A DNA stretch of 64,000 nt from Candidatus Yanofskybacteria bacterium RIFCSPHIGHO2_01_FULL_41_21 (GCA_001794025.1 MGJA01000012.1:8455-72454), one strand, 5' to 3'; counted from the first letter of the stretch, positions 4,947-45,022 are shown. Translations and numbers: made by a program. The notes: a model not told the origin generated them from the sequence alone.

Positions 4947-4975
4947 ATAAAACCGCCCTAGGGCGGTTTTATGAT
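4947..4975. terminator. bidirectional rho-independent terminator downstream of hup
   Basis: AAAACCGCCC-TAG-GGCGGTTTT hairpin with A-run and T-run flanks. Confidence 0.6.
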
Positions 4976-4991
4976 TGATGAATCGGAGTCC

Positions 4992-5870: not shown

Positions 5871-5872
5871 GT

Positions 5873-11880: not shown

Positions 11881-11904
11881 TAAATAATCAAGTGAGGTCG
11901 TAAT

Positions 11905-12065
11905 CCAATTCGAGACAATCTAGACGTTACAGGAGTTGGTTGATATAATTAACGGTCAGCAGACCGATCAACCAACGAACTGCAATGCGAGTTTAGCTGA
12001 GGTGACGAAGGTAGCCCGAAGGGTACCAAGGAACCGGAGGCGTGTCGAGAATGGGTTACGACTCC
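11905..12065. repeat. Family B about 160-nt structured element, copy B1, immediately 3' of the 12072..13445 gene
   Basis: About 90% identical to 49908..50068. On the minus (gene-sense) strand it forms nested hairpins GUUGGUUGAU[CGGUC-UGCU-GACCG]...AUCAACCAAC and GGUACCC-UUCG-GGCUACC (UUCG tetraloop). Confidence 0.55.
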
Positions 12066-12071
12066 GCTTGA

Positions 12072-13445
12072 TTATTGAGACAGAGTTGCCAGAGATGAGG
12101 ATTGGTGTTCTTGGAGCCAGCGGAGTTTGACCAGATAGCCCTTGGTTTCGTCTTTGAGACCACCGGTCTTGGAAGTAAGGGCGTTAACCCAGTCCTGAAT
12201 ACCGCCAAGAATTGAGGCGGTGAGGGTCTTATAAACCCACCGAGGCGCGCCATTATAAGAAGAGGCCAAATATTCTTCCAACTTAGGATCATTAACAATT
12301 TCTTTACCATGAGCCAACATCAGACCTCTTAAATTCTCGTCATACAATAAGATGGCGGCCTTCATGGAATTTAAATGATCCGCAGCCCCAGTTTTAAAGT
12401 CCTTAATCAATTTGGCTGAAGGATAACTTTTTACAATATTGGCATAAGTACGGGGAGTAAATTGGAGCCAACCACAGGCGCTTGAACTATTGCAGGTGGC
12501 ATTAAAGGCCTGGTCTTGATTCGCCCCAATTATGACTTGAGCTCGTTCAATAGTATTCTGCGGGTCAATTTGAAATTCAGTAAGATCGGTTTGCTCTAGA
12601 AGTGGAATCCGACTAAAAAAATCGGAACGTGATTTAAAAACATCAATCACTAGCGTTCCGGAAATCGCGCGGGACTTAACATTAGCCACACGAAGGTCAT
12701 CAAAGGCCTTACTAATAACTGTGTTGGTGTAATCTATGCCCGATTTTACCAAATCGGATGAATGTAAATCTGGACTATACGGTGAATATAATTGATATTT
12801 TATAGTTCGTTGAGTGGAATAAACCGTCCTACCTTTTACTTTCTTAGCAACCGTAGTATCTGTTTCGTTTGGATAAACATTGGCAATAACCACACTATCC
12901 GTAGGAATATTGACTTTATAAGCGGTATTCCAGCCATTCCAAATAATTCCATTCGGACGTCGCAGAATATTAATATTAAATCCGGATGGAGCGATTAATT
13001 CTGCCCCACGTTTTATAATGGTTACAATTTTAATCTCGCCTGATGAAATATTCAAAATCGCCAGAGCAATCTCTTTTTCCGGTTCCTTGAAACTTTTTAC
13101 TGTCAGGGCCAATTTCCCTTTAACCGATGTGTAACGTGTTTCCGTGTAAGCGATAGGTTTATTCCCGACGGTTAAAGTTGTATTTCTTAAAAGTTCTTTG
13201 GCTTCTGTAATTTTTTGAGATACAGTCCAAACCGGTGTTGGAATAGGTGTTGCGGTTATAACAGGAGTCGGTGTAACTATAATTTGGCGAGGCGAAAATA
13301 GACCCATTAATATTGGAATATTTTGGGCATAAACATTAAAACTCCCCACAACAATAATAACGCCAACAATGAGGACGCCTAATAATAATTTTGTATTATA
13401 AATTTTGTTCAATTCTATTAGATAGCGCTTGTACTTTATTAGCAT
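12072..13445 (-). CDS. secreted/membrane-anchored protein with C-terminal lytic-transglycosylase-like (SLT-like) region
   Basis: N-terminal TM. C-terminal SSSACGWLQFTPRTY resembles the GxxGLMQxxPxT motif of the SLT domain. The catalytic Glu context is not evident. Confidence 0.5.
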   Translation of the reverse strand: MLIKYKRYLIELNKIYNTKLLLGVLIVGVIIVVGSFNVYAQNIPILMGLFSPRQIIVTPTPVITATPIPTPVWTVSQKITEAKELLRNTTLTVGNKPIAYTETRYTSVKGKLALTVKSFKEPEKEIALAILNISSGEIKIVTIIKRGAELIAPSGFNINILRRPNGIIWNGWNTAYKVNIPTDSVVIANVYPNETDTTVAKKVKGRTVYSTQRTIKYQLYSPYSPDLHSSDLVKSGIDYTNTVISKAFDDLRVANVKSRAISGTLVIDVFKSRSDFFSRIPLLEQTDLTEFQIDPQNTIERAQVIIGANQDQAFNATCNSSSACGWLQFTPRTYANIVKSYPSAKLIKDFKTGAADHLNSMKAAILLYDENLRGLMLAHGKEIVNDPKLEEYLASSYNGAPRWVYKTLTASILGGIQDWVNALTSKTGGLKDETKGYLVKLRWLQEHQSSSLATLSQ

Positions 13446-14736
13446 AATTTACACAATCAGCCCGAGTACTTTTAGAATTACCGCAATAATAGGCCTTGGA
13501 TGCGGCAATTTCGCCGGCTCTGGTTTTAGAATTGGCTCCACCACGAGAAAGTTTTGCCGCCGCCGCGATAAAAGCATCTTCTATATTCCAGGGATTTGCT
13601 AAGGGACGACCCGTAATTCTGGCAACCTCGTCTTTATAGCCCATCCAAGTTGAGGGAATAAACTGGGCCGGCCCCATTGCACCACCCCAACCATTACCTA
13701 TCGGACAAGACACAGCTGTCGTTTCCGGATCCATCCCTAATTCAGATGTAATTTTTAAAAATGGTTGGATATCGCGAGTAGGTTTCATAATAACTCTATA
13801 ACCCTTTGAGGGTGGATCGCCAGCCCGATTACATTTGCCGACATTTCGTCCTAACCCGGATTCAAGTTCAAGTTCAGCAATAAGAAATGCCGGGCGAATA
13901 CCGGTTGCAATTGCGGCCAGATTACCAAATTTAACAGCATCGTCAGCCGTCACGCCATTTTGCTGTAAGTAAAAAATCTCGGCTTTAATTTTTTCTATCT
14001 TAGATTGAGATTGACTTACTAATGTCTGAAATTTTGATTCTTGACCCTTTGTCTCTTTTAAAAGTTTGTCTTTTTGGGCCTTATTTTGATCAACACTTCT
14101 TTTATTAATTTCTTCCAGACCTTTCTGTTTTTCAAGATCGGTTCGTTTGTCTTCCAGTTCTTGCCCCTTTTCTTCAAGTGACACTTTGAGAGCTTGAATC
14201 CCATCTATGACCACCCTCAACTCATCTTGGGTTGTTTTAATACTATTTAAATCAGTGAAAAAATCTGAAAGCGCTTCGTGTTTGAGTAAAACAGTGGTCA
14301 ATGTCTCTTGATCGTTTTGATATAAAATTCTTAAATACTGTCCCAAGATAACCTGATTCTTGGCAATTTCTACTTCGGCTTCCTTAATTTTTTCTTGAGT
14401 GCTTTGAACTTCAGAATTTGTCTTGGCAATGGAGAGACCCAAGCTTTTTATTTCTAAGTTAAGTTGATTTATTTTGGCGTTTAATTTAGATACCTCGCTC
14501 TGAAGCGTCACTTTTGTGGGTTGAATCGCATCAATTTGTTGCTGATATTGTTCTATTTCTCGTTGAATTGCATCAATTTCAGAATATTTTTTATTTACGT
14601 CATCAGTAACAGCTGCTTGAGCCAAAAGACCGAAACACAACCCCGACATGATTATTGCCGAAAACCCGCCCAACCAGATGATTCTGGTCATTCGGGCAGG
14701 TACTAAAAACCCCCGATATTCTAATACTCGTTTCAT
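13396..14736 (-). CDS. coiled-coil protein with C-terminal lytic murein transglycosylase (SLT) domain
   Basis: ELESGLG ... GAMGPAQFIPSTW is a classic SLT catalytic motif. Long N-terminal coiled coil after a TM helix. The ORF-track start 14865 extends through Family C element C-b; the start is probably Met at 14736 (MKRVLEY) or 14691. Confidence 0.7.
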   Translation of the reverse strand: MKRVLEYRGFLVPARMTRIIWLGGFSAIIMSGLCFGLLAQAAVTDDVNKKYSEIDAIQREIEQYQQQIDAIQPTKVTLQSEVSKLNAKINQLNLEIKSLGLSIAKTNSEVQSTQEKIKEAEVEIAKNQVILGQYLRILYQNDQETLTTVLLKHEALSDFFTDLNSIKTTQDELRVVIDGIQALKVSLEEKGQELEDKRTDLEKQKGLEEINKRSVDQNKAQKDKLLKETKGQESKFQTLVSQSQSKIEKIKAEIFYLQQNGVTADDAVKFGNLAAIATGIRPAFLIAELELESGLGRNVGKCNRAGDPPSKGYRVIMKPTRDIQPFLKITSELGMDPETTAVSCPIGNGWGGAMGPAQFIPSTWMGYKDEVARITGRPLANPWNIEDAFIAAAAKLSRGGANSKTRAGEIAASKAYYCGNSKSTRADCVNYANKVQALSNRIEQNL

Positions 14737-14747
14737 CCCAGGTAGTA

Positions 14748-14872
14748 GAAATCCGACCTGCGCTTTGTTTTGCTTACTAAAACGCAAGAATAATATCTCT
14801 ATTTTATCTATTAAATGCCACAAATAGTGAAGGTTAAGCGCATGCAAAACATGTCGGATTTTCACTACCTGG
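14748..14872. mobile_element. Family C MITE-like element, long copy (C-b)
   Basis: TIRs CCAGGTAGTAGAAATCCGAC ... GTCGGATTTTCACTACCTGG. Sits 11 nt upstream of the likely start of the transglycosylase gene. Confidence 0.55.
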
Positions 14873-17256: not shown

Positions 17257-19587
17257 ATGGCAAATCGTATCCTAAAATTACTCTTAATAACGTTTCTTTT
17301 TATATTTCCCATACAATTAGTTTTTTCCAGTATTCCTCAATCTCTTCCTGCTCCGACTCATTCTATAATGTTCGGATATTATCATGTCGACTCACAATAC
17401 GGCGACTTTAAAGATGAAGTAAAGGACTACACAAACACCCAACTTATTCTTCAAGAAAGTTTTTTGAGAAGCGACCTAAATAATATCCAAGAATTTAATG
17501 ATGCTTTTGATGAGACGATAACCTTGGGACATAAAATTGTCTATGTCTTGGGGACGGACTGGAATCAAGGTCTTAATGCCGTTAAGCCCTATTGGAATAA
17601 CGTTGAGTTTATTTACTTAGCTGATGAGCCGAGTTGGGATAAAGCAACAACAGAGACCAATATTACTAATTTTAAAAATTTAGTAACCCAAGCCGGACTG
17701 GCTCAAAAACAGATAGCTATCAATTATACCCCCCAACAAATCCAAACTGGCACCAGTTATCAAGCCGTTAATCTAGACATCATCGGATTTGAAGCATATG
17801 TAGATCCGGCCAAGCAAGATGACCCCAATATCCTGACAATTTTAGAAGATCAGATAGATGCTTCCAAGCAAAAAATAGGCAATAAAAAAATGTTTATTGT
17901 TATTCAGGCCTATGACCGAAACGGTGTCTGGAAAAACATGACCTCTATTCAGGATATCCAAATTACCCCATACTTAAAATCTTACAATGATAGTAATGTC
18001 ATCGGCCTGTTTATGTTTTCTTATGCCCGATCGGGCGGAACGAGAGACAACCCGACCCTAAAAACAGCCCATCAATTAATCAGCGATACTTTGCTCGGAA
18101 AAGGACCCATTGAATCAACAATTACCGACGTCACTACAGGTTGGGGCGGTAGCTTGGCTTTTAATCCAACAAATAATACATGGATGGTTGTTAGTCACCA
18201 TCATACAATGAAAGATATATTTGCTCGTTTACTCGATAATAATGGTAACCCCTTAACCGTTATGACTACCGTTGACCAAGAACCTACATTTCTTACGGGC
18301 GGTCCAGAAGTGGCTTATTCTCCTGATATAAATAAATTCTTAATTGTCTGGTGGCAAGAAAATATTACAGACACTTCCGCGGACATTTATGGTCGTTTCA
18401 TGTCAGCTGACGGTGCTCTCTTGGGGAATGCCTTTAATCTTACCCCAAATGACTCTCGGGTTCCCTATCTCGCCGAAAGTTCAATAATGCAATACGATTC
18501 CCGCAATAAAAAATTTGTCTTTGCTTTTGAAAACAGGGCCCCAGGAAATGTGTCGGTCTATTTAAAAACGGTCGGCATAGACGGAACTGTCGGACCAACT
18601 TTGATGATAGCTGAAAATCCGCCGGATTTTTTGGGCGCACCATCATTAGCGATAAATGAAACAGGAAATGAATATTGCATAAGTTACCAAAATGCCGGCG
18701 CCAATCAACCCAATAAATTAGCCGCAGAATCAAGTAGTTTGGCTGTAAAAAGGATTGATGCCTCCACCATGCAAGTCGGACCTGAAACATTTGTTTCTAA
18801 CGATATGTACTACAACGGTGGTATCGTTTACAATTCACAAGAGGATAAATATTTTGCCACTTGGACCAACTACGCTTTAAGCACCGGACTTGCAAAAACT
18901 CTCAACTCCTGCGACGGTACAGACACTGATGATACTGAAGATATTGATATTTCTACTTCGGGAGTTATTTCTTATAACCCAAAATCAAATACTTATGCTC
19001 TGATTGCTCAAGATTGTTGTAGTGTACGCAACAACTACATTATTTTTGACACGTCTTTAAATGTCCTGGAACAAGGAACCGTGTTCACTGATTCCAAAAA
19101 ATCTGAAATAACAGGTGACCCCGAAGCTGGCGGTAATTTTGCTCCAGTAATCATGGCTAACACTAACAACGGGACATATGGTGCCACTTCCAGTATGGAT
19201 TATGCTACCACAAGATTTGCCTCCAATGTTGGTTCGACTGTTCTGCTTGGTAGAACATATAGCGGTTCCGGCTTCCCCCCTCCACTTAATCTGGGTGTAC
19301 CTTCAGAAGGTCTACCAACTGATTTAGGACAGCTTATTGAGGCAATATTCAGTTGGTCTCTTTCTTTGATTGGTTTAGTTATCTTTGTCCGTTTCTTCTA
19401 TGCCGGATTCTTATGGTTTACGGCAGCTGGTAATACATCAAATACAAGTAAAGCAAAGGATATAATGAAGAACGCCGTTTATGGCGCTTTGATTCTTTTC
19501 TCGGCTTGGTTGATTCTTAATACTATCAATCCTGACCTGGTGGGAGGGGGCTTTGATCTACCGGGATTGAGTGGTGGGATGCCTTAA
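17257..19587 (+). CDS. large secreted protein: signal peptide, glycoside-hydrolase-like region (IYLADEPSW), beta-rich repeat region, same C-terminal TrbC/VirB2-like two-helix module
   Basis: Signal peptide ILKLLLITFLFIFPIQLVFSS. C-terminal 100 aa nearly identical to the preceding gene. Confidence 0.8.
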   Translation: MANRILKLLLITFLFIFPIQLVFSSIPQSLPAPTHSIMFGYYHVDSQYGDFKDEVKDYTNTQLILQESFLRSDLNNIQEFNDAFDETITLGHKIVYVLGTDWNQGLNAVKPYWNNVEFIYLADEPSWDKATTETNITNFKNLVTQAGLAQKQIAINYTPQQIQTGTSYQAVNLDIIGFEAYVDPAKQDDPNILTILEDQIDASKQKIGNKKMFIVIQAYDRNGVWKNMTSIQDIQITPYLKSYNDSNVIGLFMFSYARSGGTRDNPTLKTAHQLISDTLLGKGPIESTITDVTTGWGGSLAFNPTNNTWMVVSHHHTMKDIFARLLDNNGNPLTVMTTVDQEPTFLTGGPEVAYSPDINKFLIVWWQENITDTSADIYGRFMSADGALLGNAFNLTPNDSRVPYLAESSIMQYDSRNKKFVFAFENRAPGNVSVYLKTVGIDGTVGPTLMIAENPPDFLGAPSLAINETGNEYCISYQNAGANQPNKLAAESSSLAVKRIDASTMQVGPETFVSNDMYYNGGIVYNSQEDKYFATWTNYALSTGLAKTLNSCDGTDTDDTEDIDISTSGVISYNPKSNTYALIAQDCCSVRNNYIIFDTSLNVLEQGTVFTDSKKSEITGDPEAGGNFAPVIMANTNNGTYGATSSMDYATTRFASNVGSTVLLGRTYSGSGFPPPLNLGVPSEGLPTDLGQLIEAIFSWSLSLIGLVIFVRFFYAGFLWFTAAGNTSNTSKAKDIMKNAVYGALILFSAWLILNTINPDLVGGGFDLPGLSGGMP
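19264..19571 (+). repeat. duplicated C-terminal module (copy 2)
   Basis: See 16803..17110. Confidence 0.8.
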
Positions 19588-20531
19588 TTTTGAAGTTTTT
19601 TCTTAAAGTCCTCTATCTCAACAACAGCAAGCGGGTCGGTGTTATTTGTTGTCGCCAATTCCAGAGCGGTCCAGTGAGCTATAATTACTGAAGAAATAAT
19701 TTTTTCAATCAAAGAAACACCAACAAGAGGTATCTTGACTACCAACATACCATGCGATTGGAATAATTTAGCGGTTAAATCCATCCGCTGACTGATACGA
19801 TTATCAATATCGTCTTGAAGAAATATAGAATGGAATCCGGCCGCCCAATCTCCTTGAAAGCCGGTAATTTCATTATGGTCTGCTTCGGGAAAACAATTGT
19901 TAAAAGCCGGCATCTTGGCGGTCTCATTTAAAATAATCTTCCAAATATACCCAAGTTCTTTTAAACTTTCTGATGTATAAATAAGGGGAATAGCCAAACC
20001 AATCTGGCGAGCAACTTGAGTACCTCCAGATTTTAACGCTTCAGCGTCAATATGTTGACATGGTGTCAATTCGGTAATATCAAAATCAATGAGAGTGGCT
20101 AATGCTATTAAATCATGAAAAACCATCATTCGTGGAGGCAAATCGCTGTGGGGTAACACGATATGAGGAACCTGGTTTTGATTGGCAATATTAATCAATT
20201 CTCCGCCAGTGGAAACAACTACTAGATTCAACCCATTTTCAATTGCTATTTTCGCCCCCGAGATTGGCTCGGTTGTATTTCCGGAATGAGAGTTTGTAAT
20301 AATAAGTGCCGAGGTAAGTACTTCTTCGTCAAATAATGGTAAATCATAATCGGAATGGATATGAATATCTAATTCCGGTTTCACCATATTTAAAATTCCG
20401 GTTGCTAACCGGGAACCGCCCATACCTAAAACGATAATTTTTTTGAACGGCCGAATCTTTTCTTTTCCGATAATTTCCGGTTTATATTCAAATTGTTTTG
20501 GAACCCCTAAAATTCCTTCTTCGTAGGTCAT
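19584..20531 (-). CDS. bifunctional phosphoglucose/phosphomannose isomerase (SIS domain, archaeal-type PGI/PMI)
   Basis: GMGGSRLATGILNMV and overall SIS-domain architecture. The ORF-track start 20561 runs through the Family D cassette; the true start is the cassette-supplied ATG at 20531 (MTYEEGILG). Confidence 0.75.
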   Translation of the reverse strand: MTYEEGILGVPKQFEYKPEIIGKEKIRPFKKIIVLGMGGSRLATGILNMVKPELDIHIHSDYDLPLFDEEVLTSALIITNSHSGNTTEPISGAKIAIENGLNLVVVSTGGELINIANQNQVPHIVLPHSDLPPRMMVFHDLIALATLIDFDITELTPCQHIDAEALKSGGTQVARQIGLAIPLIYTSESLKELGYIWKIILNETAKMPAFNNCFPEADHNEITGFQGDWAAGFHSIFLQDDIDNRISQRMDLTAKLFQSHGMLVVKIPLVGVSLIEKIISSVIIAHWTALELATTNNTDPLAVVEIEDFKKKLQN

Positions 20532-20638
20532 CCCGTTAGAAATTTTACGACCACCCACCATTTTGCGATGGTGGCTATGGTTAGTAATTTTAGTTAATAA
20601 TTTAATAAGATATTCCCGTAGGGTTAATTTCTAACGGG
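20529..20638 (-). mobile_element. Family D 112-nt promoter/leader/start-codon cassette, copy D1 (15-bp exact TIRs ATCCCGTTAGAAATT / AATTTCTAACGGGAT)
   Basis: Shared with 22202..22314 and 27780..27891. Read on the minus strand it has an entry hairpin, an AT-rich promoter-like stretch (the -10-like hexamer is poorly conserved in this copy), a conserved CCACCA-N8-UGGUGG leader hairpin and UUUCUAACGGG-ATG. It begins at the stop codon of the upstream gene and ends with the start codon of the downstream gene. Confidence 0.6.
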
Positions 20639-20639
20639 A

Positions 20640-21023
20640 TTATTGATTCAGTTTTGATTTGATTTCTTTGATATCGTTTCTAACTTCGTGAACTAAATCA
20701 TAGAGATGTTTAATATATTCATCTTCCTCACGTAAATCAATTTCTGTTTTTTCATCAATTCGTTTGTCGGCCTTGAGACCGGAGATAATTATATTTTCAC
20801 CAATAAAAAATGAGACGAATGTACCCGTCAAAAGCATAATAATAACACTTCCGACCAACCACCAACCAGGATGGATATGAGGGGCTAAATCCGCTAACTC
20901 CCAAACCGCTCGCCAGAATAAAACTATTGATACGCCACCAATTAATGCATAAGGCACTGGATGACGACTTAAGGCGTGCCGGGTTTTATCTTCTAAACGA
21001 TCAAAAAAAGAGAATAACTTCAT
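20640..21023 (-). CDS. hypothetical membrane protein
   Basis: 127 aa with two TM helices and a charged C-terminal helix. No family recognised. Confidence 0.5.
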   Translation of the reverse strand: MKLFSFFDRLEDKTRHALSRHPVPYALIGGVSIVLFWRAVWELADLAPHIHPGWWLVGSVIIMLLTGTFVSFFIGENIIISGLKADKRIDEKTEIDLREEDEYIKHLYDLVHEVRNDIKEIKSKLNQ

Positions 21024-21092
21024 GTTTTCATTGTATAGAATTTAATCGTTTTTGCCAACCTATTTAGTAACAAGAGGATATTAAATATGGAT

Positions 21093-21722
21093 TTAATCTA
21101 ATTCAAAAAATTGTATAAGGTCAAGCCAAGTTGAGAGATCGGATTGTTTTTGAACATAGCCAAGAATATTGATAGTGGAACCAATATGAATGCCCAAATG
21201 AAGATGTTTACGCTCGCCATCAGTTTCAGTGGAATAACCCTTACCGAGAATACCGAGTAAATCCCCTTTTTTTAATGATTGACCAACAACAGGATTAATA
21301 CTTTGTAATTTCAGATGACCATAAATAACCGTAACGGATTCTCCATTTAAATTACACGACTGCACGGCCACACCACCATAACCAGTGGCGTATTTTTTCA
21401 GTAACAATTTACCATCACAGAATACTGGTACAGGAATATCAATACCCGCCTCAGCGGCCGTCGTTTCAAAATCCACACCCGTATGATAACCTGCGAATTT
21501 CTCGGGTTGAACCGGAGAATTTCCCGACGTTATATAAATTCCGAAAGGTTTTTTAGTAACTCTTGTTTTGTCAAAAATGGTGTTTGTTGAGTCAGTTGTT
21601 TTACCGGGGACTAAATTTGTCGGAACAACATCTTCCGGCGCTAAAGCAATTTGATTTTTATATATAAAAATCAAAACCGCCCCAATGATAAAAACTGTGG
21701 CAACAAGAATTGTTTTCTTCAT
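21093..21722 (-). CDS. M23-family peptidoglycan metalloendopeptidase
   Basis: N-terminal TM. HTGVDF and HLHLGIHIG motifs (HxxxD ... HxH) typical of LytM/M23. Confidence 0.75.
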   Translation of the reverse strand: MKKTILVATVFIIGAVLIFIYKNQIALAPEDVVPTNLVPGKTTDSTNTIFDKTRVTKKPFGIYITSGNSPVQPEKFAGYHTGVDFETTAAEAGIDIPVPVFCDGKLLLKKYATGYGGVAVQSCNLNGESVTVIYGHLKLQSINPVVGQSLKKGDLLGILGKGYSTETDGERKHLHLGIHIGSTINILGYVQKQSDLSTWLDLIQFFELD

Positions 21723-21739
21723 ACTCTGTAAATTCTAAA

Positions 21740-22204
21740 CTACTTTACAGTAAGATTACCCTTCATACCCTGCTGGCGATGAGTGCCAATTGAACAATAA
21801 TATTCAAATGTCCCCACTTTATTGGCAACAAATTGGATGGTTTCTTGCTGACCACTTTGAAGAATTTTTGTGGCGGAATTAAACTCGTCAATTTTCCAAT
21901 CATGGGTACCCGATTCGTTTTTGAATATAATTACAACCGTATCTCCTTTGTTTACGGTTATTTGAGAAGGAGTGAAAGAAAATGGCTTACCGACAACAGT
22001 GAATGTCTTTATACTTGAGACCACGGTGGCAGTTGGAGAAGCTGAAGGAGAAACCGAAACGGTTGGAGAAACAGAGGGACTAACGGAAACTTCCGGAGAC
22101 GGACTACCGGTCGGATTGGCAACTTCTTTCGTTCCAATCTGGAACATATATGCTACCACTCCCAATAATATAACTATTACCACGAAAATGATTAATTTTT
22201 TCAT
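21740..22204 (-). CDS. cupredoxin (type-1 blue copper) domain protein with Ser/Pro-rich linker
   Basis: GTHDWKIDEF ... YYCSIGTHRQQGMKG supplies His, Cys, His and Met ligands in plastocyanin-like spacing. N-terminal TM anchor. The ORF-track N-terminus (MVCKISNG) is encoded by the Family D cassette; true start MKKLIIF at 22204. Confidence 0.7.
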   Translation of the reverse strand: MKKLIIFVVIVILLGVVAYMFQIGTKEVANPTGSPSPEVSVSPSVSPTVSVSPSASPTATVVSSIKTFTVVGKPFSFTPSQITVNKGDTVVIIFKNESGTHDWKIDEFNSATKILQSGQQETIQFVANKVGTFEYYCSIGTHRQQGMKGNLTVK

Positions 22205-22314
22205 CCCGTTAGAAATTTTACAAACCATCCACCATTTTGTAGTGGTGGAACTGGCAAGTAATCTTAATTAGTGATTTATTATAATATTCCCGTAGGGTTA
22301 ATTTCTAACGGGAT
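22202..22314 (-). mobile_element. Family D cassette, copy D2 (contains TATAAT -10-like hexamer)
   Basis: See 20529..20638. Supplies the ATG of the cupredoxin gene. Confidence 0.6.
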
Positions 22315-22362
22315 TTATAGTTTTATTGTATAATGGCTTAAGATTAATTTCAATAGAAGACA

Positions 22363-22968
22363 ATGAACAAGACAATTATTAAGCACTGTATCACTATTTT
22401 TGCCTGCCTGGCAATTATTTATCCAATTTCAGTAAACGTCGGGAATATGTCGTGGACTCTAAATTCTTCTTTAATATTCAACCTTTTCCCGATATTTGGA
22501 CTGTTTGCTTTTACACTTTTATGGCTCCACACCATCAGTGGAGCATTTGAGTCATGGCTTAGAAAATACATTGACTTTGATCAATTTGTACAGAATACGT
22601 CTATTTTGATTCTTGTTTCTATTATTCTTCATCCGCTTTTACTACTGATTCCTGTTGGTTTTAATTTTAATCAAGTATTCACTTACGGAGAAAAATATAT
22701 CTGGTTGGCGATTATCGGATGGTTTTTACTGATTACTTATGACATCGCTAAATTCTTGAAGGATAAATATGACTTTTTTGCAAAAAATTGGACTAATATT
22801 TTAATAATAAGCAACATCGGATTTTTGATAACTTTTTTTCATTCCCTTGGCGTCGGCGACGATTTACAATCAGGACCATTGAGAACTGTTTGGATTTTTT
22901 ATGGCATAACCGCCATTGTAGCCATAGTGTACACTTACGGAATCAAAAAATATCGAGCAGATAAATAG
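22363..22968 (+). CDS. polytopic membrane protein (hypothetical)
   Basis: 201 aa with 5-6 hydrophobic helices. Confidence 0.55.
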   Translation: MNKTIIKHCITIFACLAIIYPISVNVGNMSWTLNSSLIFNLFPIFGLFAFTLLWLHTISGAFESWLRKYIDFDQFVQNTSILILVSIILHPLLLLIPVGFNFNQVFTYGEKYIWLAIIGWFLLITYDIAKFLKDKYDFFAKNWTNILIISNIGFLITFFHSLGVGDDLQSGPLRTVWIFYGITAIVAIVYTYGIKKYRADK

Positions 22969-22970
22969 AA

Positions 22971-23600
22971 CTATTTTTTATTCTTATTTTCTTTATCTGT
23001 TAAAGATAAACTGGCCCACATATAACGAGCGCCATGAGTCCGGTATGGTCTCCACGTCTCTACAATCTTTTGAACCTGCTTAATAGTTGGTTCTTTTTTG
23101 AAACTATAGACCTTCTTAACACCATTCCGGAGTCCCAAATCACCATAAGAAAATACATCTTCCCGTCCAAGCGAGAAAATCATAAACATTTCTACTGACC
23201 AGATGCCAATACCTTTAATCTCCGTCAAAAGTTTTATGACTTCTTCATCGGTCAGTTTATGAACTCGTTTTATTTCTTTCTCCCGTTCCATAAAAAATCG
23301 GGCTACATTTTTAGTGTAAGCCACTTTAGAATTAGAAAACCCTGCCGAACGCAACTTCATATCGGACATTTTTAAATATTCTTGCGGGGTTGGGAATTTA
23401 TTAGATTTAAATAAGGCGACCACCCGATTCAAAATTGTCTGGGCCGCCTTACCTGATAATTGTTGGTTGGCGACGGCCCGAATAAGGGCTTCAAAATAGT
23501 TCTTCCGTAATTTGAGCGGTTGAAGTTTAACCCGCTTCATAAGAGCTCGGAGAATAGGGTCAGATTTTGCCAGATGTACTTCATTTTTATTGCTCGACAT
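22971..23600 (-). CDS. HhH-GPD DNA glycosylase (3-methyladenine DNA glycosylase II / AlkA-like)
   Basis: HhH motif LTEIKGIGIWSVEMF followed by a GDLGL region; the expected catalytic Asp is not evident. Overall length and pattern fit AlkA/HhH-GPD. Confidence 0.7.
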   Translation of the reverse strand: MSSNKNEVHLAKSDPILRALMKRVKLQPLKLRKNYFEALIRAVANQQLSGKAAQTILNRVVALFKSNKFPTPQEYLKMSDMKLRSAGFSNSKVAYTKNVARFFMEREKEIKRVHKLTDEEVIKLLTEIKGIGIWSVEMFMIFSLGREDVFSYGDLGLRNGVKKVYSFKKEPTIKQVQKIVETWRPYRTHGARYMWASLSLTDKENKNKK

Positions 23601-23610
23601 GGCAAGATAA

Positions 23611-24609
23611 TTATAACGATGCCTGATACTGGTTGGAGATATGAATCGGAATTTTTTCCAAACGATTAATCTTGGAATCTTTCAACCATACTTTAACCGC
23701 CAATCCGGTCATTGTCTCAACTGAAAAATTTTGATCAAATACAAAATTACCCAAACTATAAACAATATACTTGCCCTTATATTGCTCAACATCTTCCACC
23801 ACATGAGGATGGTGCCCAATAATTAAATCCGCTCCGGCATCAATCGCTTTGTGAGCTATTTCTTCTTGTAAAGCATTATGTACGGGAATATATTCTTCGC
23901 CCCAATGGAAAGAAACAACTACCAGTTTAGAACGACTTTTCATCAGCTGTATATCATCAACCATTTTGACCTCATCCAGTACCGCTACTCCGGCACTGTC
24001 TCCCGTAGCCGATACGGACTTGGGCAGAAGATTGGTGTACCCAAGAAAACCAACGTCTGTCTTTCCAACTTTCTTTATTACTCCCGTATGCGCTTCATAT
24101 TCATTGTGACCACCACCGACATAAGAAATCCCCGCTTCGGCAAGATGATATAAAGTATCGCTAAAGGCATCTCGGCCATAATCCCAGGCATGATTGTTGG
24201 CTACCGATAAAATATCAAAACCGGCAAAAATTAAACCACTAACTACTTTTGGGTCACTTCGAAAAGAATAAATACTGCCAACTTTAACACCCCGATTTGA
24301 TACGGGTGTTTCCAGATTGGCAAAAGTCAAATCGGCTCCATTCAAAAAATCTGCAATTTGTCTGAATGGCCATAAATAATCATTTTTAGTGGTCATGAGT
24401 GCTCCCACTGAACGCGAAAGCATAATATCACCGACAAATAACATGTTTGTTTCTGAAGGCGCCGGTGTCGGCTCGGATGATTGAGTATTTATAAAATCAA
24501 CGGAAAAAACTTTATTTAAAAATATATTTCTTTTGATACCAAAACCGACAACGACAATAACGACGACGGTTGTGAAAATGATTAAATAATTTTTGAATAT
24601 TTTAGACAT
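23611..24609 (-). CDS. CapA/PGA_cap-family metallophosphatase (poly-gamma-glutamate biosynthesis-like)
   Basis: N-terminal TM. LFVGDIML, ANNH and GHHPH motifs of the calcineurin-like CapA family. Confidence 0.75.
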   Translation of the reverse strand: MSKIFKNYLIIFTTVVVIVVVGFGIKRNIFLNKVFSVDFINTQSSEPTPAPSETNMLFVGDIMLSRSVGALMTTKNDYLWPFRQIADFLNGADLTFANLETPVSNRGVKVGSIYSFRSDPKVVSGLIFAGFDILSVANNHAWDYGRDAFSDTLYHLAEAGISYVGGGHNEYEAHTGVIKKVGKTDVGFLGYTNLLPKSVSATGDSAGVAVLDEVKMVDDIQLMKSRSKLVVVSFHWGEEYIPVHNALQEEIAHKAIDAGADLIIGHHPHVVEDVEQYKGKYIVYSLGNFVFDQNFSVETMTGLAVKVWLKDSKINRLEKIPIHISNQYQASL

Positions 24610-24836
24610 AATTGTAATTTTTGCTTTTTTGATAGTCGCTTAATTGCCACTTCACGTTTTAACGCCGTTGACCGATTTTTACATTTTTCAGTGTACACTA
24701 TTTTAATCACCTTATGCGACCTGGTATAATTTCCACCCTTCCCAAATTGATGTTCCTTAAACCTCCGCTTCATATCGGTCGTAATTCCGCAGTATAAACT
24801 GCCATCAACGCATTTTAATATATAAACAAGATACAT
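24582..24836 (-). CDS. GIY-YIG nuclease family protein
   Basis: YLVYILKCVDGSLYCGITTDMKRRFKEH: GIY...YIG with conserved Arg and Glu. Confidence 0.75.
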   Translation of the reverse strand: MYLVYILKCVDGSLYCGITTDMKRRFKEHQFGKGGNYTRSHKVIKIVYTEKCKNRSTALKREVAIKRLSKKQKLQLCLKYSKII

Positions 24837-24930
24837 TTTAAGATCTTAGCACATTCTATCACACCCTTGTATTCTATTAACCTTTTGTTACCATAAGCGC
24901 GTCAGAATGCACGCTACATAATCTTAAAAC

Positions 24931-24962
24931 AAAAACCACCTTTTGGTGGTTTTTGTTTACCT
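24931..24962. terminator. bidirectional rho-independent terminator
   Basis: AAAAACCACC-TTTT-GGTGGTTTTT hairpin downstream of the helicase gene. Confidence 0.6.
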
Positions 24963-24988
24963 GTCTAAAAAACGGAATAATTGTTTAT

Positions 24989-26203
24989 TTATTCTATAAA
25001 TGTCAGGGCCTTACCGGTCTTGTTAGCCCGACCGGTTCGGCCAATACGGTGAACATAATCATCATAAGTTGCCGGCAGGTCATAGTTAATGACATGACTG
25101 ACATCAGGAATATCAAGACCACGAGCAGCGACATCCGTTGCAATAAGAATTTGGATGTGATTTTCTTTAAACGATTTTAATGCCTTCTGACGTCGAGCAT
25201 GGTTTTTGTCACCATGAATTGACTCAGCTTTGAATCCGCTGGTAACCAAAGTGTTATATAATCGTTCAACACCATGTTTGGTTCGTCCGAATATTAAAAC
25301 CTTATTAAAACCCGGTTGAGCCAAAAGCTCTTCCAAAACTTGTAACTTGCCCTTGCCATTATTAACCCGGACAATATCTTGATCAACATTTTTAGCTGTG
25401 TCTTGGGTTTTTACCGAAATCCGAACCGGTGTTCGGAGAAATTCATTAATCAATCCTTCAATTTCACGAGTGATGGTAGCGGAAAAGAATAAAGTATGTC
25501 GTTCCTTCGGCATCGCTGCCATCATTGTGCGCATATCTTTAATAAAGCCCATATCCAACATTCTATCAGCTTCATCTAAGACAACGGTCTTGAATCTGGC
25601 TAAATTAATAAACCGACGTTCCATTAAGTCCTTAATGCGACCAGGGGTGCCGATAATAAAATTGTGCTGACGACGAAGATTAGAAATCTGATAACCGATA
25701 CTCGCCCCACCCACACAACAAACGGAAAACATTCGCATTCCCAGAGCAAATCCACGAAGTTCATCATCAATCTGAATTGCCAGTTCCCGAGTTGGAACAA
25801 CAATCAAAACATTCTCTTGTGGATTCAAAAGAACTTTATTTATCAGCGGAATAAGAAACGCGGCTGTTTTTCCGGTACCGGTATTAGCAATACCCACCAG
25901 ATCAGAACCGCGCAAAATATGCGGAATGGTTTTATCTTGGATTGGTGTTGGCTCAACGTAGCCCTTACGGGTAATGTTTGTTTTCAATCGGGTATCCACA
26001 TTAAAATCCGCGAATTTGTGTTCGGGTACAAAAACTTCAACCTGCTCGGTGATGACAGCTTTTTTGACAAAACGCGTCGGATCAATACGTTGGCCTTGAA
26101 ATCCACCACGACTTGAACGAACAGGACGACTACCTGGTTTACGACTTCCAAAACTACTTGGGCGACGACCAAAAGCCGACGCTCGGTTAAAACTTCTCTG
26201 CAT
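24989..26203 (-). CDS. DEAD-box ATP-dependent RNA helicase
   Basis: Q-motif, Walker A-like NTGTGKTAAF, DEAD, SAT, HRIGRTGR. RG-rich N-terminus. Confidence 0.9.
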   Translation of the reverse strand: MQRSFNRASAFGRRPSSFGSRKPGSRPVRSSRGGFQGQRIDPTRFVKKAVITEQVEVFVPEHKFADFNVDTRLKTNITRKGYVEPTPIQDKTIPHILRGSDLVGIANTGTGKTAAFLIPLINKVLLNPQENVLIVVPTRELAIQIDDELRGFALGMRMFSVCCVGGASIGYQISNLRRQHNFIIGTPGRIKDLMERRFINLARFKTVVLDEADRMLDMGFIKDMRTMMAAMPKERHTLFFSATITREIEGLINEFLRTPVRISVKTQDTAKNVDQDIVRVNNGKGKLQVLEELLAQPGFNKVLIFGRTKHGVERLYNTLVTSGFKAESIHGDKNHARRQKALKSFKENHIQILIATDVAARGLDIPDVSHVINYDLPATYDDYVHRIGRTGRANKTGKALTFIE

Positions 26204-26338
26204 CCTTTAATTACTCTTTGAGACCTGATGAGATAGATAAGAAAAACGATAACTCCAGATACCAAATGAGATATATTGATTGTCCTTTAATTATATCAAA
26301 AAAATATTATAAAGTCAACCGTGGTTGTTGAAAAGGTC

Positions 26339-26908
26339 TTAAACCCCTAAAAGCTTATAAATAACGAACAAAATGACGTCTTTTCCTACAAACACATAGA
26401 GGGCACAAGATATACTCTCGCCTATAAAAACGCCCAGAAGAAATTTCCGAATGTTAACCCTTAATGATCCGCACATATAACACATCAGGTCTGTCGGGGT
26501 AAAAGGGAAGAAACTCCAACTGATAACAATGGGTAATTCATTTTTTTTAAGCACTAATCTTAGCTGGGCAATTTGACGAGAGTATCGACGTTCAAAATAA
26601 TTGGCCAAGCCCAAATATTCAGCAAAATAATAAATACAAGCCGAAGAAACCATTACACCAACCATTATTAAAATATAGGCCGGAAGAGCAGGTAAAAATA
26701 TCAGACCGAGAAAAATTATATATGTAACGGGAATTAGAGTAAAACCGCGCAGACATCCCAAAATCAGAAAAACAGCATAACGCCACGATAGAGGCCTACT
26801 CATTAACCAAGATACACCTAATCGGACTAAATCATTCTGAAAAAAATAAAAATAAAAAGCGGTCAGGATAACTAAGACCCACAACAAAAATACAATGCGC
26901 TTATTCAC
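26339..26908 (-). CDS. TVP38/TMEM64 (DedA-related) family membrane protein
   Basis: Polytopic. Pattern RGFTLIPVTYIIFLGLIF ... SFFPFTPTDLMCYMCG resembles VTT-domain proteins. Confidence 0.55.
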   Translation of the reverse strand: MNKRIVFLLWVLVILTAFYFYFFQNDLVRLGVSWLMSRPLSWRYAVFLILGCLRGFTLIPVTYIIFLGLIFLPALPAYILIMVGVMVSSACIYYFAEYLGLANYFERRYSRQIAQLRLVLKKNELPIVISWSFFPFTPTDLMCYMCGSLRVNIRKFLLGVFIGESISCALYVFVGKDVILFVIYKLLGV

Positions 26909-26923
26909 TTTTACGGAGATGCT

Positions 26924-27322
26924 TTATTCGCTCGTCACACCGTCAAAATGTTCATCTTCATCGGCAATAGCATCAGCTTTAGTTGTGTGCACCACACCGT
27001 CCCGATGATTAGGCGGGGAATAAACTGTATAAAGTTTAAGAGGAGTATCCGAAGACGTATTGATAATATTATGTTTGGCTCCAGCCGGAACTACGACTGC
27101 AAATCCATCTTTAACATCATGTTCCACTCCGTCTAAAATTGCTTTGCCTTGGCCGGCCTCAACCCGTATAAACTGATCCAGCTGATGAATTTCTTCACCA
27201 ATATCTTCATTGGGATTTAAACTCATAACTACAAGCTGACTGTTTTTGGCAGTGTATAAAACCCTACGAAAATTTTCGTTTTTAATTGATTCCTCCTCTA
27301 TGTTTATAATATATCCTTTCAT
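26924..27322 (-). CDS. cupin domain protein
   Basis: HQLDQFIRVEAGQG ... VVVPAGAKHNIIN: two cupin motifs, G(X)5HXH-like and PxGxxHxxxN. Confidence 0.7.
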   Translation of the reverse strand: MKGYIINIEEESIKNENFRRVLYTAKNSQLVVMSLNPNEDIGEEIHQLDQFIRVEAGQGKAILDGVEHDVKDGFAVVVPAGAKHNIINTSSDTPLKLYTVYSPPNHRDGVVHTTKADAIADEDEHFDGVTSE

Positions 27323-27335
27323 TTATTTATTTTTA

Positions 27336-27782
27336 TTATTTATTTTTTCTAAAATATTTTTCTAACCCCCAATAATTACCGGCCCTGAAAACGGCTAGTA
27401 CAATCAAGACCGCAATGTAAATAATATGCTCATCAACAATAAACGAATTTAAACTTGGAAAACCCGGGTAAGGAAACTTGAGAATTGGAAGATAATACAA
27501 AACCATAAGTAAAACCCCGAGAGGAGCACTCCAGCGAACAAATATACCTAAAATTAACGAAGCCCCCAGTAATGTTAAGCCCCATTCATTCATAAAATTA
27601 GTAATTGGCAACATTCCTGGAGAAGCAAACCAACTAAATAATTCCGGAAATGTTTTGGCCCCCTGTAAAAATTTCTCTGCTGACCAGGCCGGATTTAATA
27701 CCTTAGTAATCCCCGCCCAGAAAAAAACCCAGCCCAGCCCGATTCGTAAAACAAATAATGAAATTCTTTGTAATTTATTCAT
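27336..27782 (-). CDS. DoxX-family membrane protein
   Basis: LFVLRIGLGWVFFWAGITK is the DoxX signature. Start codon is the terminal CAT of the Family D cassette. Confidence 0.7.
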   Translation of the reverse strand: MNKLQRISLFVLRIGLGWVFFWAGITKVLNPAWSAEKFLQGAKTFPELFSWFASPGMLPITNFMNEWGLTLLGASLILGIFVRWSAPLGVLLMVLYYLPILKFPYPGFPSLNSFIVDEHIIYIAVLIVLAVFRAGNYWGLEKYFRKNK

Positions 27783-27891
27783 CCCGTTAGAAATTCACAA
27801 ACCGTTCACCATTTTGTGGTGGTAGGACCGGCAAGCAAATTTAATTAGTAATTTATTATGATATTCCCGTAGGGTTAATTTCTAACGGGAT
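27780..27891 (-). mobile_element. Family D cassette, copy D3 (CATAAT -10-like)
   Basis: See 20529..20638. Confidence 0.6.
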
Positions 27892-27952
27892 TAATTTATT
27901 GCTTGCTATAATTATAATACTAACAAAAACCCGACACAAGCTAAAAAAGTGG

Positions 27953-32843: not shown

Positions 32844-32917
32844 TGGCTGCGGGGGAAGGAATCGAACCTTCATTTTAGGATTCAAAGTCCCGCGTCCTAC
32901 CGTTAGACGACCCCGCA
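32844..32917 (-). tRNA. tRNA-Gln (anticodon TTG), CCA encoded
   Basis: Minus strand: UGCGGGG-UC-GUCUAACGGUAGGAC-G-CGGGA-CUUUGAA-UCCUA-AAAU-GAAGG-UUCGAUU-CCUUC-CCCCGCA-G-CCA. Cloverleaf folds with a 7-bp acceptor, GG-containing D-loop, UUCGAUU T-loop and anticodon UUG. One C-A mismatch closes the anticodon stem. Confidence 0.75.
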
Positions 32918-32921
32918 AATA

Positions 32922-33617
32922 TTATTTTTTTGGAATAGAATTTATTATACCATTTGTCCAGCCAGAAATCTTTCTATTTAATTCAGAACTTGCCAATATG
33001 TTAATCCTCAATACCCCATAATAATCGTTACCAACATTCATTCTCCTTGTATTAATCTTATTCTTTTTAAAATAGATGTGCCTGAACTTATCCACCAAAA
33101 TAGATGTTTCTTTTGACCAAAACTTTATCACTGCCGGTATTCTATCTCTGTGACTTTCATGTATGTAGATTTCTGGAATAATCCTTTCTTTAGAAATACC
33201 GCATACTTTAACTAACCAAAACATGAAAAATCTTATCATATTTTGGTCAGAATTGCTAAATTTAGCTGAAGACCCCGGACGCAACTCTTTTTCTTTAGAT
33301 CCTTCTGCCCAATAAAGAGCAACGCCTATGAGCCACAATTCCCTTTTGGATAATACTCCTATTTCTTCTTCAGCTATTGTTTTAATTCTATAACTTCGTT
33401 CAATTCTTTGTTCCTTTTTTTTAAGGCCCCCTCGCAATGCAGAAGCTAATTTTTTGTCAGTAAGTCGTTGTTTCTGTTTTTTAGATAATCCAACGGACTG
33501 TAACCAAAGAGCTAAACTAGATTTTGCAACCGGAATTTGAGCAAGAATTTCAGAATAAGAAAGACCTTGTTTTCTCAATTCTACGGCCTTAATTTTTTCT
33601 GATTCTTTTTTAATCAT
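32922..33617 (-). CDS. HTH-domain protein with degenerate single-motif LAGLIDADG-like endonuclease fold
   Basis: N-terminal resolvase-type HTH (GLSYSEILAQIPVAKSSLALWL). WLIGVALYWAEGSKE ... FFMFWLVKVCGI parallels the LAGfvDGDGS ... fLdkLvdeiGvG of I-CreI-like proteins. Stop codon is 5 nt from the tRNA-Gln 5' end. Confidence 0.45.
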   Translation of the reverse strand: MIKKESEKIKAVELRKQGLSYSEILAQIPVAKSSLALWLQSVGLSKKQKQRLTDKKLASALRGGLKKKEQRIERSYRIKTIAEEEIGVLSKRELWLIGVALYWAEGSKEKELRPGSSAKFSNSDQNMIRFFMFWLVKVCGISKERIIPEIYIHESHRDRIPAVIKFWSKETSILVDKFRHIYFKKNKINTRRMNVGNDYYGVLRINILASSELNRKISGWTNGIINSIPKK

Positions 33618-43700: not shown

Positions 43701-44031
43701 GGGCTAACGCTCGCTATATATACGAACTTCTCTATGTTTCTATCGGCCTATTCAACTAAATAAAGTGATGATGCCTGAAAATAGCGTATTTACTGGTTTT
43801 TGCGAGCCCATTACTGGGCTCTTTATAAAGAACAGACCTATACAACCATTATAGCACCCTGCGCCTAGGAAGTCAACCCCGCCGTTGAGAAGCGACATTT
43901 AGGGCTAATTAATGGCTTTAAACCTATGTAAATTGTTCCCACCATTATTTTACCTATAGTCCATTTGAAGAATATTCATCGCTTCTCAACGGCGGGGTCA
44001 ATACCCCACAAAATTGGTATAACATAAGGGG

Positions 44032-44886
44032 CTATTTGAAGTATACTCGGTCATCAAAGCGTAAATCTATGTATTGGGGTTTAAGTGTTCCATTGGCCAT
44101 TTTCTGGGTTCTAAATATACGAAACGTATCAAGCTGGTTTTGAAGATTTGAATCAATACTAAACTTAACTAAATAACTTGCTCCAATCGGTAAGATGGGG
44201 TCATTAACCAGAACATCAAACTCTGTGTATGTATCAACGGGGATGGTAATATTTTTAACTTTAACACCTTGCTCAATCAAAATTGGGACGACAGTTTGGA
44301 TGGCTTTAAGAAATTTTGAATAGACCGTTAATGGAGACGTTGATGCCGATTGAATTCGCATATCATTAACGTTGAGTAAAAGCACGCCCGATGATTGAAT
44401 CGCTTGGCCAAACGTCACACCATCGTGGTCAAAGTATCGACAATCGGGAATTTCTTGAGATGAACCCGTAGAAACAAAACACCAGACCCCTTCTGCCCGA
44501 CGTTCGGTCACGGATATTTTTAAGGTATGCAAATATTTTTTCTTAACGGAAACATTCTCTATAAATGAGAATCGGGAAATTAATTCAGCGACTAAAGAAT
44601 CAGATTGAACAAAAAATATATCTCGTCCTATTGGAATACCGAACACTTTACGATTCAGATTCTCATCAATGACCCCCTGAACATCTCTCTGGTGCCCGTC
44701 AGTCAATCCTTCATATGAAATAGTGGTTACTCTCAACCACGGCGCATAAAAAAGAGCGTAACCAATGCCGACAAGAATAACGACAACAACAAAAATAATT
44801 AATCCTATTTTTATCTCAAAACGATGGCGTCGTTTAGACGCCAATTTATCGTTGTGTTTAAATTTTTTAATATCAACAGGACGCAT
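44032..44886 (-). CDS. ftsQ: cell division protein FtsQ/DivIB-like (TM + POTRA)
   Basis: Single TM (IGLIIFVVVVILVGIGYALF) followed by a POTRA-like region. The ORF-track N-terminus MAVMCG is encoded by the TIR of the 44885 element; start is probably MRPVDIKKF at 44886. Confidence 0.6.
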   Translation of the reverse strand: MRPVDIKKFKHNDKLASKRRHRFEIKIGLIIFVVVVILVGIGYALFYAPWLRVTTISYEGLTDGHQRDVQGVIDENLNRKVFGIPIGRDIFFVQSDSLVAELISRFSFIENVSVKKKYLHTLKISVTERRAEGVWCFVSTGSSQEIPDCRYFDHDGVTFGQAIQSSGVLLLNVNDMRIQSASTSPLTVYSKFLKAIQTVVPILIEQGVKVKNITIPVDTYTEFDVLVNDPILPIGASYLVKFSIDSNLQNQLDTFRIFRTQKMANGTLKPQYIDLRFDDRVYFK

Positions 44887-45022
44887 CCCGCACATAACAG
44901 CCATAAATTGCTTTAAGGCAGTACTACGTGTTTAGTACTCGCATGCAACTTCACTATAGCTGTGATTATTAAACTAAGTTAGTCCCGCAATTAGTACTGC
45001 AAATGGCTGTTATGTGCGGGAT
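44885..45022. mobile_element. about 138-nt element with perfect 20-bp TIRs (ATCCCGCACATAACAGCCAT / ATGGCTGTTATGTGCGGGAT) bridging the serS stop and ftsQ start
   Basis: TIRs seen directly. The right TIR contains the last 3 codons and stop of serS; the left TIR overlaps the ftsQ ATG. The interior has AT-rich -10-like hexamers on the minus strand. Confidence 0.55.

Follow-up and report, generated by a model that had tools for sequence, protein, structure and literature searches.

A probable MITE-like element at gene starts in a Yanofskybacteria genome and its relatives in other bacterial lineages

The window analyzed here is a stretch of 64,000 nucleotides from Candidatus Yanofskybacteria bacterium RIFCSPHIGHO2_01_FULL_41_21 (MGJA01000012.1:8455-72454). 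[quoted passage not shown] Three copies of a short inverted-repeat sequence, here called family D (copies D1, D2, and D3), stand directly in front of three genes in the window. [quoted passage not shown] It is ~110 bp long, is bounded by 14-bp repeats (YCCCGTTAGAAATT), encodes no protein and would be part of a group spread over several phyla.

The 15-mer AATTTCTAACGGGAT had exactly six occurrences in the window, which formed three inverted pairs (20530-20544/20626-20640 for D1, 22203-22217/22300-22314 for D2, and 27781-27795/27877-27891 for D3), and the three copies with exact inverted repeats given in the preliminary description were thereby recovered. The repeat proper was 14 bp (TCCCGTTAGAAATT), and the 15th pair (A..T) was contributed by the flanks. 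All copies were read on the minus strand, with D1 at 20531..20639 (109 bp), D2 at 22204..22313 (110 bp), and D3 at 27782..27890 (109 bp). The gene-distal repeat TCCCGTTAGAAATT was located at 20626-20639, 22300..22313, and 27877-27890 in D1, D2, and D3, respectively, and the gene-proximal repeat AATTTCTAACGGGA at 20531-20544, 22204..22217, and 27782-27795. The gene-distal end also carried a fold-back (CCCGTTAGAAATTAACCCTACGGG), an inner inverted copy of the terminal CCCG, at 20615-20638 in D1, 22289..22312 in D2, and 27866-27889 in D3. Minus-strand reading and the alignment of the copies agreed with the earlier account in that the entry hairpin CCCGUUAGAAAUUAACCCUACGGG and the tail ending in ATG were invariant. 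The interior contained -10-like hexamers (TATAAT in D2, CATAAT in D3, degenerate in D1) and a CCACC..GGUGG hairpin in all three copies, which in D2 read TCCACCA-N8-TGGTGGA (22228..22249). The copies were ~83–90% identical to one another and their flanks were unrelated; therefore, segmental duplication was ruled out as their source.

The last base of the gene-proximal repeat was, in each copy, the A of an ATG opening a long open reading frame (ORF). These ORFs encoded a PGI C-terminal SIS domain (315 aa) at D1, a cupredoxin (154 aa; 21740-22204) at D2, and a DoxX protein (148 aa; 27336-27782) at D3, so that the long ORFs and the domain assignments both upheld the reported starts of PGI/PMI-type, cupredoxin, and DoxX genes. 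D1 filled the interval from the TAA (20640-20642) that ends a 127-aa ORF to the PGI-like gene's ATG, and it did begin exactly at the upstream stop codon, as had been described. DoxX homologues of equal length aligned over 100% of the query, and the ATG at D3 was also the start in an element-free allele. In three ORFs (19584-20561 and 21740-22228 in the window, and 218-673 in locus L124) the first in-frame ATG fell inside an element, being part of the inner hairpin's AAAATGG or of the repeat of a second family, family E. Mechanical ORF calls therefore begin such genes within the element, and at least one public annotation, that of a 151-aa DoxX protein in L124, did the same.

Public genomes, one per species, were scanned with the pattern CCCGTTAGAAATT-N65-95-AATTTCTAACGGG, and the search of other genomes called for in the preliminary description thus gave at least 114 loci, at which the repeat YCCCGTTAGAAATT (13/14 bp) bounded elements ~100 bp long. 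Their length including the 14-bp repeats peaked sharply at 101–103 bp, within a scan limited to interiors of N65-95. The MAG labels among the loci listed comprised many Patescibacteria classes, Pirellulales, Phycisphaerae, Planctomycetia, Omnitrophota, Smithellaceae, Thermodesulfobacteriota (Desulfobacterota), and Gammaproteobacteria. The interiors were AT-rich, unrelated between genomes, and alike within a genome or lineage. The 14th base pair of the repeat was T/A in 54 elements and C/G in 60, and there were subfamilies in which the inner parts of both repeats had changed together (AAGTT/AACTT, AGTTT/AAACT, and GAGATA/..ATCTC). No copy was found in the viral contigs of IMG/VR, and thus a phage vector was without support. 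Family D itself comprised 14 distinct loci in several Parcubacteria genomes, with the same polarity throughout and an ORF starting at A|TG in all of them. Its left end was conserved over ~28 nt (repeat plus AACCCTACGGGAAT) and its right end over ~18 nt, which indicated that the two ends are not equivalent.

The genes downstream of the family-D loci were unrelated (SecG-like, RNase J-like, ribosomal protein L18, PGI, cupredoxin, and DoxX), and those downstream of 56 loci of the wider family were likewise unrelated housekeeping genes, for example RuvB. The shared cis-regulatory leader of a regulon, one of the options raised earlier, was not sustained, since the genes at the 14 family-D loci have nothing in common and a regulon is therefore excluded. 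A riboswitch, thermometer, or operator pair heading a copper, redox, or sugar regulon would suit the cupredoxin, DoxX, and PGI genes of the window, which are plausibly related in theme, and the highly structured leader would fit as well. However, that theme is not continued by the SecG-like, RNase J-like, and L18 genes, orthologous cupredoxin and DoxX genes work without the element, and the interiors differ from genome to genome. No Rfam family was matched by the element, and this held for the gathering threshold as well as for E values up to 10. The interior hairpin of family D had been said to keep its stem while the loop varied; the conservation of its sequence stood, but the covariation check across the family-D copies gave nothing above shuffled or slid controls. 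These findings leave the element outside the riboswitches and cis-regulatory RNAs, and a regulatory leader of this kind is very unlikely.

An exact 4-bp direct repeat flanked 69 of 117 elements, whereas shuffled pairing of left and right flanks gave 10.5 on average and 21 at most. The duplications were mostly T-N-N-A (TGAA 19, TTCA 10, TTTA 10, TTGA 6, and TAAA 4; with strands pooled, TGAA/TTCA 29, TTTA/TAAA 14, and TTGA/TCAA 8), and TTAA was never seen among the 69. In 59 of the 69, the base beyond the duplication matched, on one side or both, the base that ends the repeat at the other end of the element, which suggested that usually 5 bp of the target are mimicked. Nested copies, each with its own duplication, were present in three loci (L027, L030, and L074).

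These duplications also bear on integron attC sites, which the elements recall in their length of ~100 bp, palindromic ends, variable centre, and the likeness of GTTAGAA/TTCTAAC to the core sites GTTRRRY/RYYYAAC. A cluster of attC-like sites that had lost its integrase is nevertheless hardly credible. The 4-bp flanking duplications speak against it, as does the motif order, which is inverted relative to attC (RYYYAAC...GTTRRRY), GTT.. here belonging to the 5′ arm and ..AAC to the 3′ arm. The perfect stems contain no extrahelical bases, the copies lie up to 5.5 kb apart with several housekeeping genes on both strands between them, and no integrase was present in the window. The integron attC candidate was rejected on these grounds.

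Empty sites were found at orthologous loci. In a close relative (loci L123 and L127; DoxX 87% identical), the gene order PurF-DoxX-DEAD-box helicase-cupredoxin-PGI was the same. The D3 site was empty in both L123 and L127 (gcaataaattaatttaaATGAATAAA), the D2 site was empty in L127, and at the D1 site L127 retained an orthologous, diverged copy. More distant relatives also had no element before DoxX and shared this arrangement, in which a -10 box precedes the ATG by ~25 nt; thus, the empty state is ancestral at DoxX. The DoxX start of L124 had the same junction as D3 in the window (aaattaa|T...A|TGAATAAA) but with a family E element inside (L124 100-236), and the DoxX start of L145 was also occupied by a family E element (L145 1385-1520). 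That suggested either in-place replacement or a recurrent hot spot. The word mobile in the preliminary description was therefore well chosen, given the empty sites in a relative, the 4-bp duplications, the nested copies, and the spread over at least 114 loci in many phyla. As a separate observation on this region, the M23 peptidase gene of the window (21093-21722), between the cupredoxin gene and the 127-aa ORF, was absent from the syntenic L127, which had a terminator-like hairpin at that position instead (L127 15990-16030).

The elements are placed very precisely at gene borders. Among 118 elements, 56 adjoined an ORF of at least 60 aa whose start codon consisted of the final base of the repeat and the two flanking bases next to it (TG). 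Counted by ends, 57 of 236 were at such starts; in the background this was true of 0.6% of positions overall and of 5% of those with R|TNNA (p about 1e-23 or lower). The upstream (left) duplicate still read ATG in 30 of 55 start-linked elements. Copies of the C/G type read ATGAA|C...G|TGAA, which indicated that the ancestral ATG is now a GTG whose G is derived from the element. Stop codons of long ORFs coincided 16 times with the left duplicate and five times with the repeat's own TAG (21 in total); D1 and one other copy were flush with an upstream TAA. An ancestral ATGA in which stop and start overlapped was split by six elements, among them the one between the yebC-like gene and ruvC in L021. 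The element had been credited with supplying the start codon; this holds for the first base (A or G) only, and the TG comes from the duplicated target. At least eight of the ~51 genes in the window started at the end of an element of this build.

In planctomycete copies, GGAGG stood immediately before the proximal repeat, which fits residence in hosts that use Shine-Dalgarno sequences. Two copies in a Planctomycetia MAG (L021 1084-1190 and 2320-2424) split a yebC-like/ruvC/ruvA/ruvB operon, and both carried GGAGG, suggesting that the interiors adapt to the translation signals of the host. Some elements were associated with tRNA genes. Those at L013 5186-5263 and L061 838-909 were located in tRNA-Pro genes, where the repeat end CGGGG formed the first five tRNA bases, and repeat pairs enclosed an intact tRNA at L054 1437-1540 (Pro), L114 7048-7151 (Pro), and L093 7889-7995 (Ala). 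A tRNA-derived origin of the interiors was considered and rejected as a general explanation, as tRNAs were present in only 3 of 118 elements and relaxed thresholds did no better than shuffles.

Short non-coding length, terminal inverted repeats, a target duplication across the family, and presence/absence polymorphism, by which MITEs are recognized, were all found. Several observations nevertheless weigh against a MITE-like element. D1–D3 themselves have no exact duplications (one mismatch in D2, one in D3, and three in D1), so that the target duplication is a property of the family and not of the three window copies. Compared with the empty alleles, 5–10 nt of native leader were lost at D3 and 19–23 nt at D2, and therefore these two junctions are not simple insertions. 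Either the upstream duplicate, which held the old ATG, was lost once the element was in place, or insertion occurred upstream (at TTAA/TAAA) and the element became flush through a subsequent deletion. Start codons hold 47% of the copies, far above the share for neutral intergenic insertion, and selection or true targeting must be invoked. That a 13-nt repeat is conserved exactly from phylum to phylum is unusual for elements derived from an insertion sequence (IS), and the phylum labels of the loci go by the titles of MAG records alone.

The searches for a transposase weigh on the same side. When the ORFs of the 114 loci were clustered, no family occurred in more than six loci and no recurrent transposase appeared. 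Across 1.15 Mb of locus sequence, these ends bounded no long element, and pairs of YCCCG ends 300–3500 bp apart included none with a matching duplication. A tblastn search of the locus sequences with the transposase of ISEcp1 (IS1380 family) gave no match, and Pfam and NCBIfam scans of nearly all long ORFs gave no transposase in the window. The sole transposase-like match there was a weak N-terminal IS3 helix-turn-helix (E = 0.001) in a 231-aa ORF (32922-33617), which had no Pfam match, adjoined tRNA-Gln (32844-32917), and probably encodes merely a DNA-binding domain. An autonomous, transposase-encoding partner, expected of a MITE, was thus found neither in the 1.15 Mb of loci nor in the window; by analogy with the Correia elements, this would not exclude the MITE class.

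For the MITE-like element, the following course of events is proposed. An enzyme acting in trans would make a 4-bp staggered cut, usually at T-N-N-A (TGAA, TAAA, or TTGA), and in compact genomes the surviving copies may be those that landed exactly at gene borders, which would account for the observed pattern. Of the duplicated 4 bp, the upstream copy can preserve the stop codon of the preceding gene (TGA or TAA), and the last repeat base (A or G) together with the TG of the downstream duplicate can re-create a start codon, ATG or GTG. In its upstream duplicate the old start may then decay (ATA at D2 and ATT at D3); the terminal base of the element would become essential to the gene, and its retention would be favored.

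Two features of the elements, their polarity and their folding, call for explanation. A CGGG/GGGG fold-back at most 32 nt from the repeat was gene-distal in 26 and gene-proximal in none of the 55 gene-linked copies (p = 3e-8). It was invariant in the three window copies and almost invariant in the 13 distinct family-D sequences, and family E had the same gene-distal layout. The elements fold strongly, with a closing stem of 14–15 bp (z = -3.4 to -7). A hairpin-forming unit of ~100 nt that is co-oriented with genes so strictly could also be a single-strand element moved by an HUH/Y1 enzyme (REPIN/RAYT or IS200/IS605) instead of by a cut-and-paste DDE transposase; in that case, strand-specific insertion at replication forks would underlie its fixed polarity. 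The lack of a linked transposase would fit a single-copy host enzyme, and the joint change of the inner repeat parts between subfamilies is in its favor. However, 59% of the copies have 4-bp duplications of variable sequence, whereas IS200/IS605 elements and REPINs make none and use a fixed tetranucleotide; the repeats here are also terminal and perfect, not subterminal and imperfect. No RAYT or TnpA was seen at the loci, which were checked by ORF clustering only and not with hidden Markov models. We consider this mode of transposition unlikely, and membership among the REPINs or other palindromic elements derived from IS200/IS605 was rejected on the criterion of duplication and tetranucleotide.

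The strict polarity (the fold-back counts and all 14 family-D loci) likewise calls for a directional function or mechanism, and a co-opted expression module would provide one. An outward promoter formed by the distal repeat and the interior would give internal transcripts with a free AUG, and read-through transcripts would be silenced by the long stem, which amounts to insulation; for family D this could hold alongside mobility. The promoter-like region described earlier exists as far as D2 and D3 are concerned, since TAGAAA-18-TATAAT in D2 and TAGAAA-18-CATAAT in D3 match at 10/12 and 9/12. In the full transcript the predicted unpaired fraction from -12 to +3 was 6–8%, and it was 28–55% without the first 45 nt; an unstructured leader would matter in an organism without Shine-Dalgarno sequences. 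On the other hand, the -10 hexamer was not conserved among the 13 distinct family-D sequences (CACAAT, CACGAT, CTTATT, and GCGCGAT were present), and promoter-like matches in the elements were not more numerous than in shuffles. In the wider family, repeat-anchored -10 matches pointed toward the gene in 14 and away from it in 15 of 55 copies, and a repeat-anchored promoter was rejected as a trait of that family. Some copies lie inside operons, for example before ruvB and rplR. Native promoters also persist on the minus strand: TTGAAA-17-TACAAT (22325..22353) is located directly upstream of D2, with the same -10 in the empty L127 allele, and a -10-like TATAAT (27911..27916) upstream of D3 is conserved in the empty alleles. 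An expression module is thus a possible but rather doubtful account, and the insulating terminator proposed in the preliminary description was not borne out.

With native promoter-like sites just upstream of D2 and D3, read-through transcripts should carry the whole element. In such transcripts the AUG region is predicted to be ~93% paired. Under the MITE-like reading, the element would be transcribed with its host gene and its two repeats would pair, burying the AUG in a 14–15-bp stem, so that expression would have to use one of three routes. The stem may be opened by ribosomes terminating at a flush upstream stop (D1 and the operon cases), it may be cleaved by RNase III as in Correia elements, or transcripts may start within the element. 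A Shine-Dalgarno-like motif was found in only two or three of 51 long ORFs in the window, and many genes had a -10-like hexamer whose end lay 6–9 nt from the ATG on its upstream side (those upstream of 21023, 23600, 39487, and 56694 are examples). The proximity of these hexamers to the ATG suggests, from the sequence, that leaderless or near-leaderless mRNAs may be frequent.

The window contained at least three further families of the same build. On the minus strand, a family E element (44886..45021; 19-bp repeat TCCCGCACATAACAGCCAT) was flush with the ATG of a 284-aa ORF; it supplied the last codons and the TAA stop of the upstream seryl-tRNA synthetase ORF as well as the A of the next ATG. 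An element of a third family (CCCCGCCGTTGAGAAGCGA; 43877..43997, no strand assigned) had an exact 4-bp duplication, TCAA, on both sides, and it shared YCCCG...CGGGR ends with family E. Family X (repeat CCAGGTAGTGAAAATCCGAC) was represented on the minus strand at 14738..14872, with a GATG duplication and flush with the start of the 13395-14736 ORF, and at 47689-47750, 53885-54020 (MreC start), and 58497-58633 (ribosome recycling factor). All four copies were flush with starts, namely those of SLT-domain, class II aminoacyl-tRNA synthetase, MreC, and ribosome recycling factor genes, and the duplications in this family were GATG and TGTA. At the ribosome recycling factor gene the upstream ATGTA was kept and the present start is GTG.

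In a bolder proposal, a cross-phylum hairpin superfamily (families D, E, X, and the CCCCGCCGTTGA type) would actively home to translation start sites, rather than just persist at them, and would be translationally transparent. The perfect stem would juxtapose the upstream stop or leader and the rebuilt AUG, and initiation or coupling would be bridged across the base of the hairpin; alternatively, RNase III would trim the transcript to a near-leaderless mRNA in organisms that do not use Shine-Dalgarno sequences. If true, essential genes and tRNA-Pro genes would have come to include selfish DNA as one of their obligatory parts. We regard active homing as improbable.

Other repeats in the window were recorded. 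The region 42900-44030 (~1.1 kb) had no long ORF and was packed with inverted-repeat elements (42972-43127, 43645-43815, and 43877-43997), and small mobile elements seem to have been dumped there. More inverted-repeat elements were located at 5739-5889, 11883-12076, and 59525-59749. Perfect short palindromes resembling terminators were found at gene ends (24927-24958, 4939-4980, and 10206-10244), and the first of these underlay a sub-threshold Rfam match to STnc370 that is most likely due to chance.

Almost nothing is known of transposable DNA in the small CPR genomes. The MITE-like element would add to the CPR and several other phyla an undescribed and apparently very widespread group of mobile elements. 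It would illustrate how a selfish element can persist where there is almost no spare DNA, by landing on a border, having stop and start rebuilt, and joining its last base to the gene. It would also explain a class of mis-called gene starts, as in PGI, cupredoxin, and a DoxX homologue, which gene callers began inside the element, and would offer a natural system for translation initiation beside a strong hairpin in bacteria without Shine-Dalgarno sequences. The shared 13-nt repeat would mark gene flow or a common enzyme among groundwater lineages.

Nothing relevant was found in the literature on the repeat sequence, on MITEs in CPR, or on MITEs at start codons. The 2024 review of prokaryotic MITEs mentioned neither start codons, stop codons, and codon regeneration nor the CPR (PMC10969869). 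Several known systems can be compared with the element. A 4-bp T-N-N-A duplication and asymmetric ends are shared with piggyBac, whose duplication is TTAA, and with IS1380, which is its prokaryotic relative (PMC10140906). The repeats all start with CC(C) and contain TAGA, as in CCCTAGAAAGATA of piggyBac (from an oligonucleotide in PMC7351741), CCTAGATTCTACGT of ISEcp1, and CCCGTTAGAAATT here. However, TTAA is never duplicated here. The resemblance is short and may be due to chance, and the link is only a lead, because no IS1380- or piggyBac-like transposase was found in the locus sequences searched.

REPINs mobilized by RAYTs are likewise hairpin-forming non-coding repeats of ~100 nt, dispersed at gene borders without a linked transposase. 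They show no target duplication, have a species-specific sequence, and carry a conserved GTAG-type tetranucleotide. By contrast, the elements here have variable 4-bp duplications and share one repeat across phyla.

ERIC/IRU, RUP, and Chunjie elements are also small palindromic mobile elements that are tolerated within operons and transcribed along with them. ERIC elements have orientation-dependent effects on mRNA via RNase E (PMC10969869), and a Chunjie insertion in an operon is cited in the same review as having left the operon structure undisturbed (Chen et al., 2008, cited in PMC10969869). The re-creation of a start codon is undescribed for these three, and they are confined to a species or genus, unlike the element here.

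The Correia elements of Neisseria (NEMIS/CREE) are similar in being non-coding, ~100–150 bp long, and abundant beside genes, with terminal inverted repeats and a short duplication. They are co-transcribed with genes, and their long repeat stem enters the mRNA, as is predicted for that of the present element. In Correia mRNA this stem is cut by RNase III (PMC10969869). Outward promoters are documented for Correia and are unsupported for the element here. Correia elements have a 26-bp repeat and a TA duplication, whereas here the repeat is 14 bp with a different sequence and the duplication is 4-bp T-N-N-A; membership in the Correia family was rejected on repeat sequence and duplication. To our knowledge, no transposase is known for Correia. 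Moreover, Correia is confined to one genus, and the elements described here occur in many phyla, flush with start and stop codons and with the start codon rebuilt. In sum, the element acts like a bacterial MITE, with Correia, ERIC, RUP, and Chunjie as its closest analogues, and it belongs to no named family among those compared.

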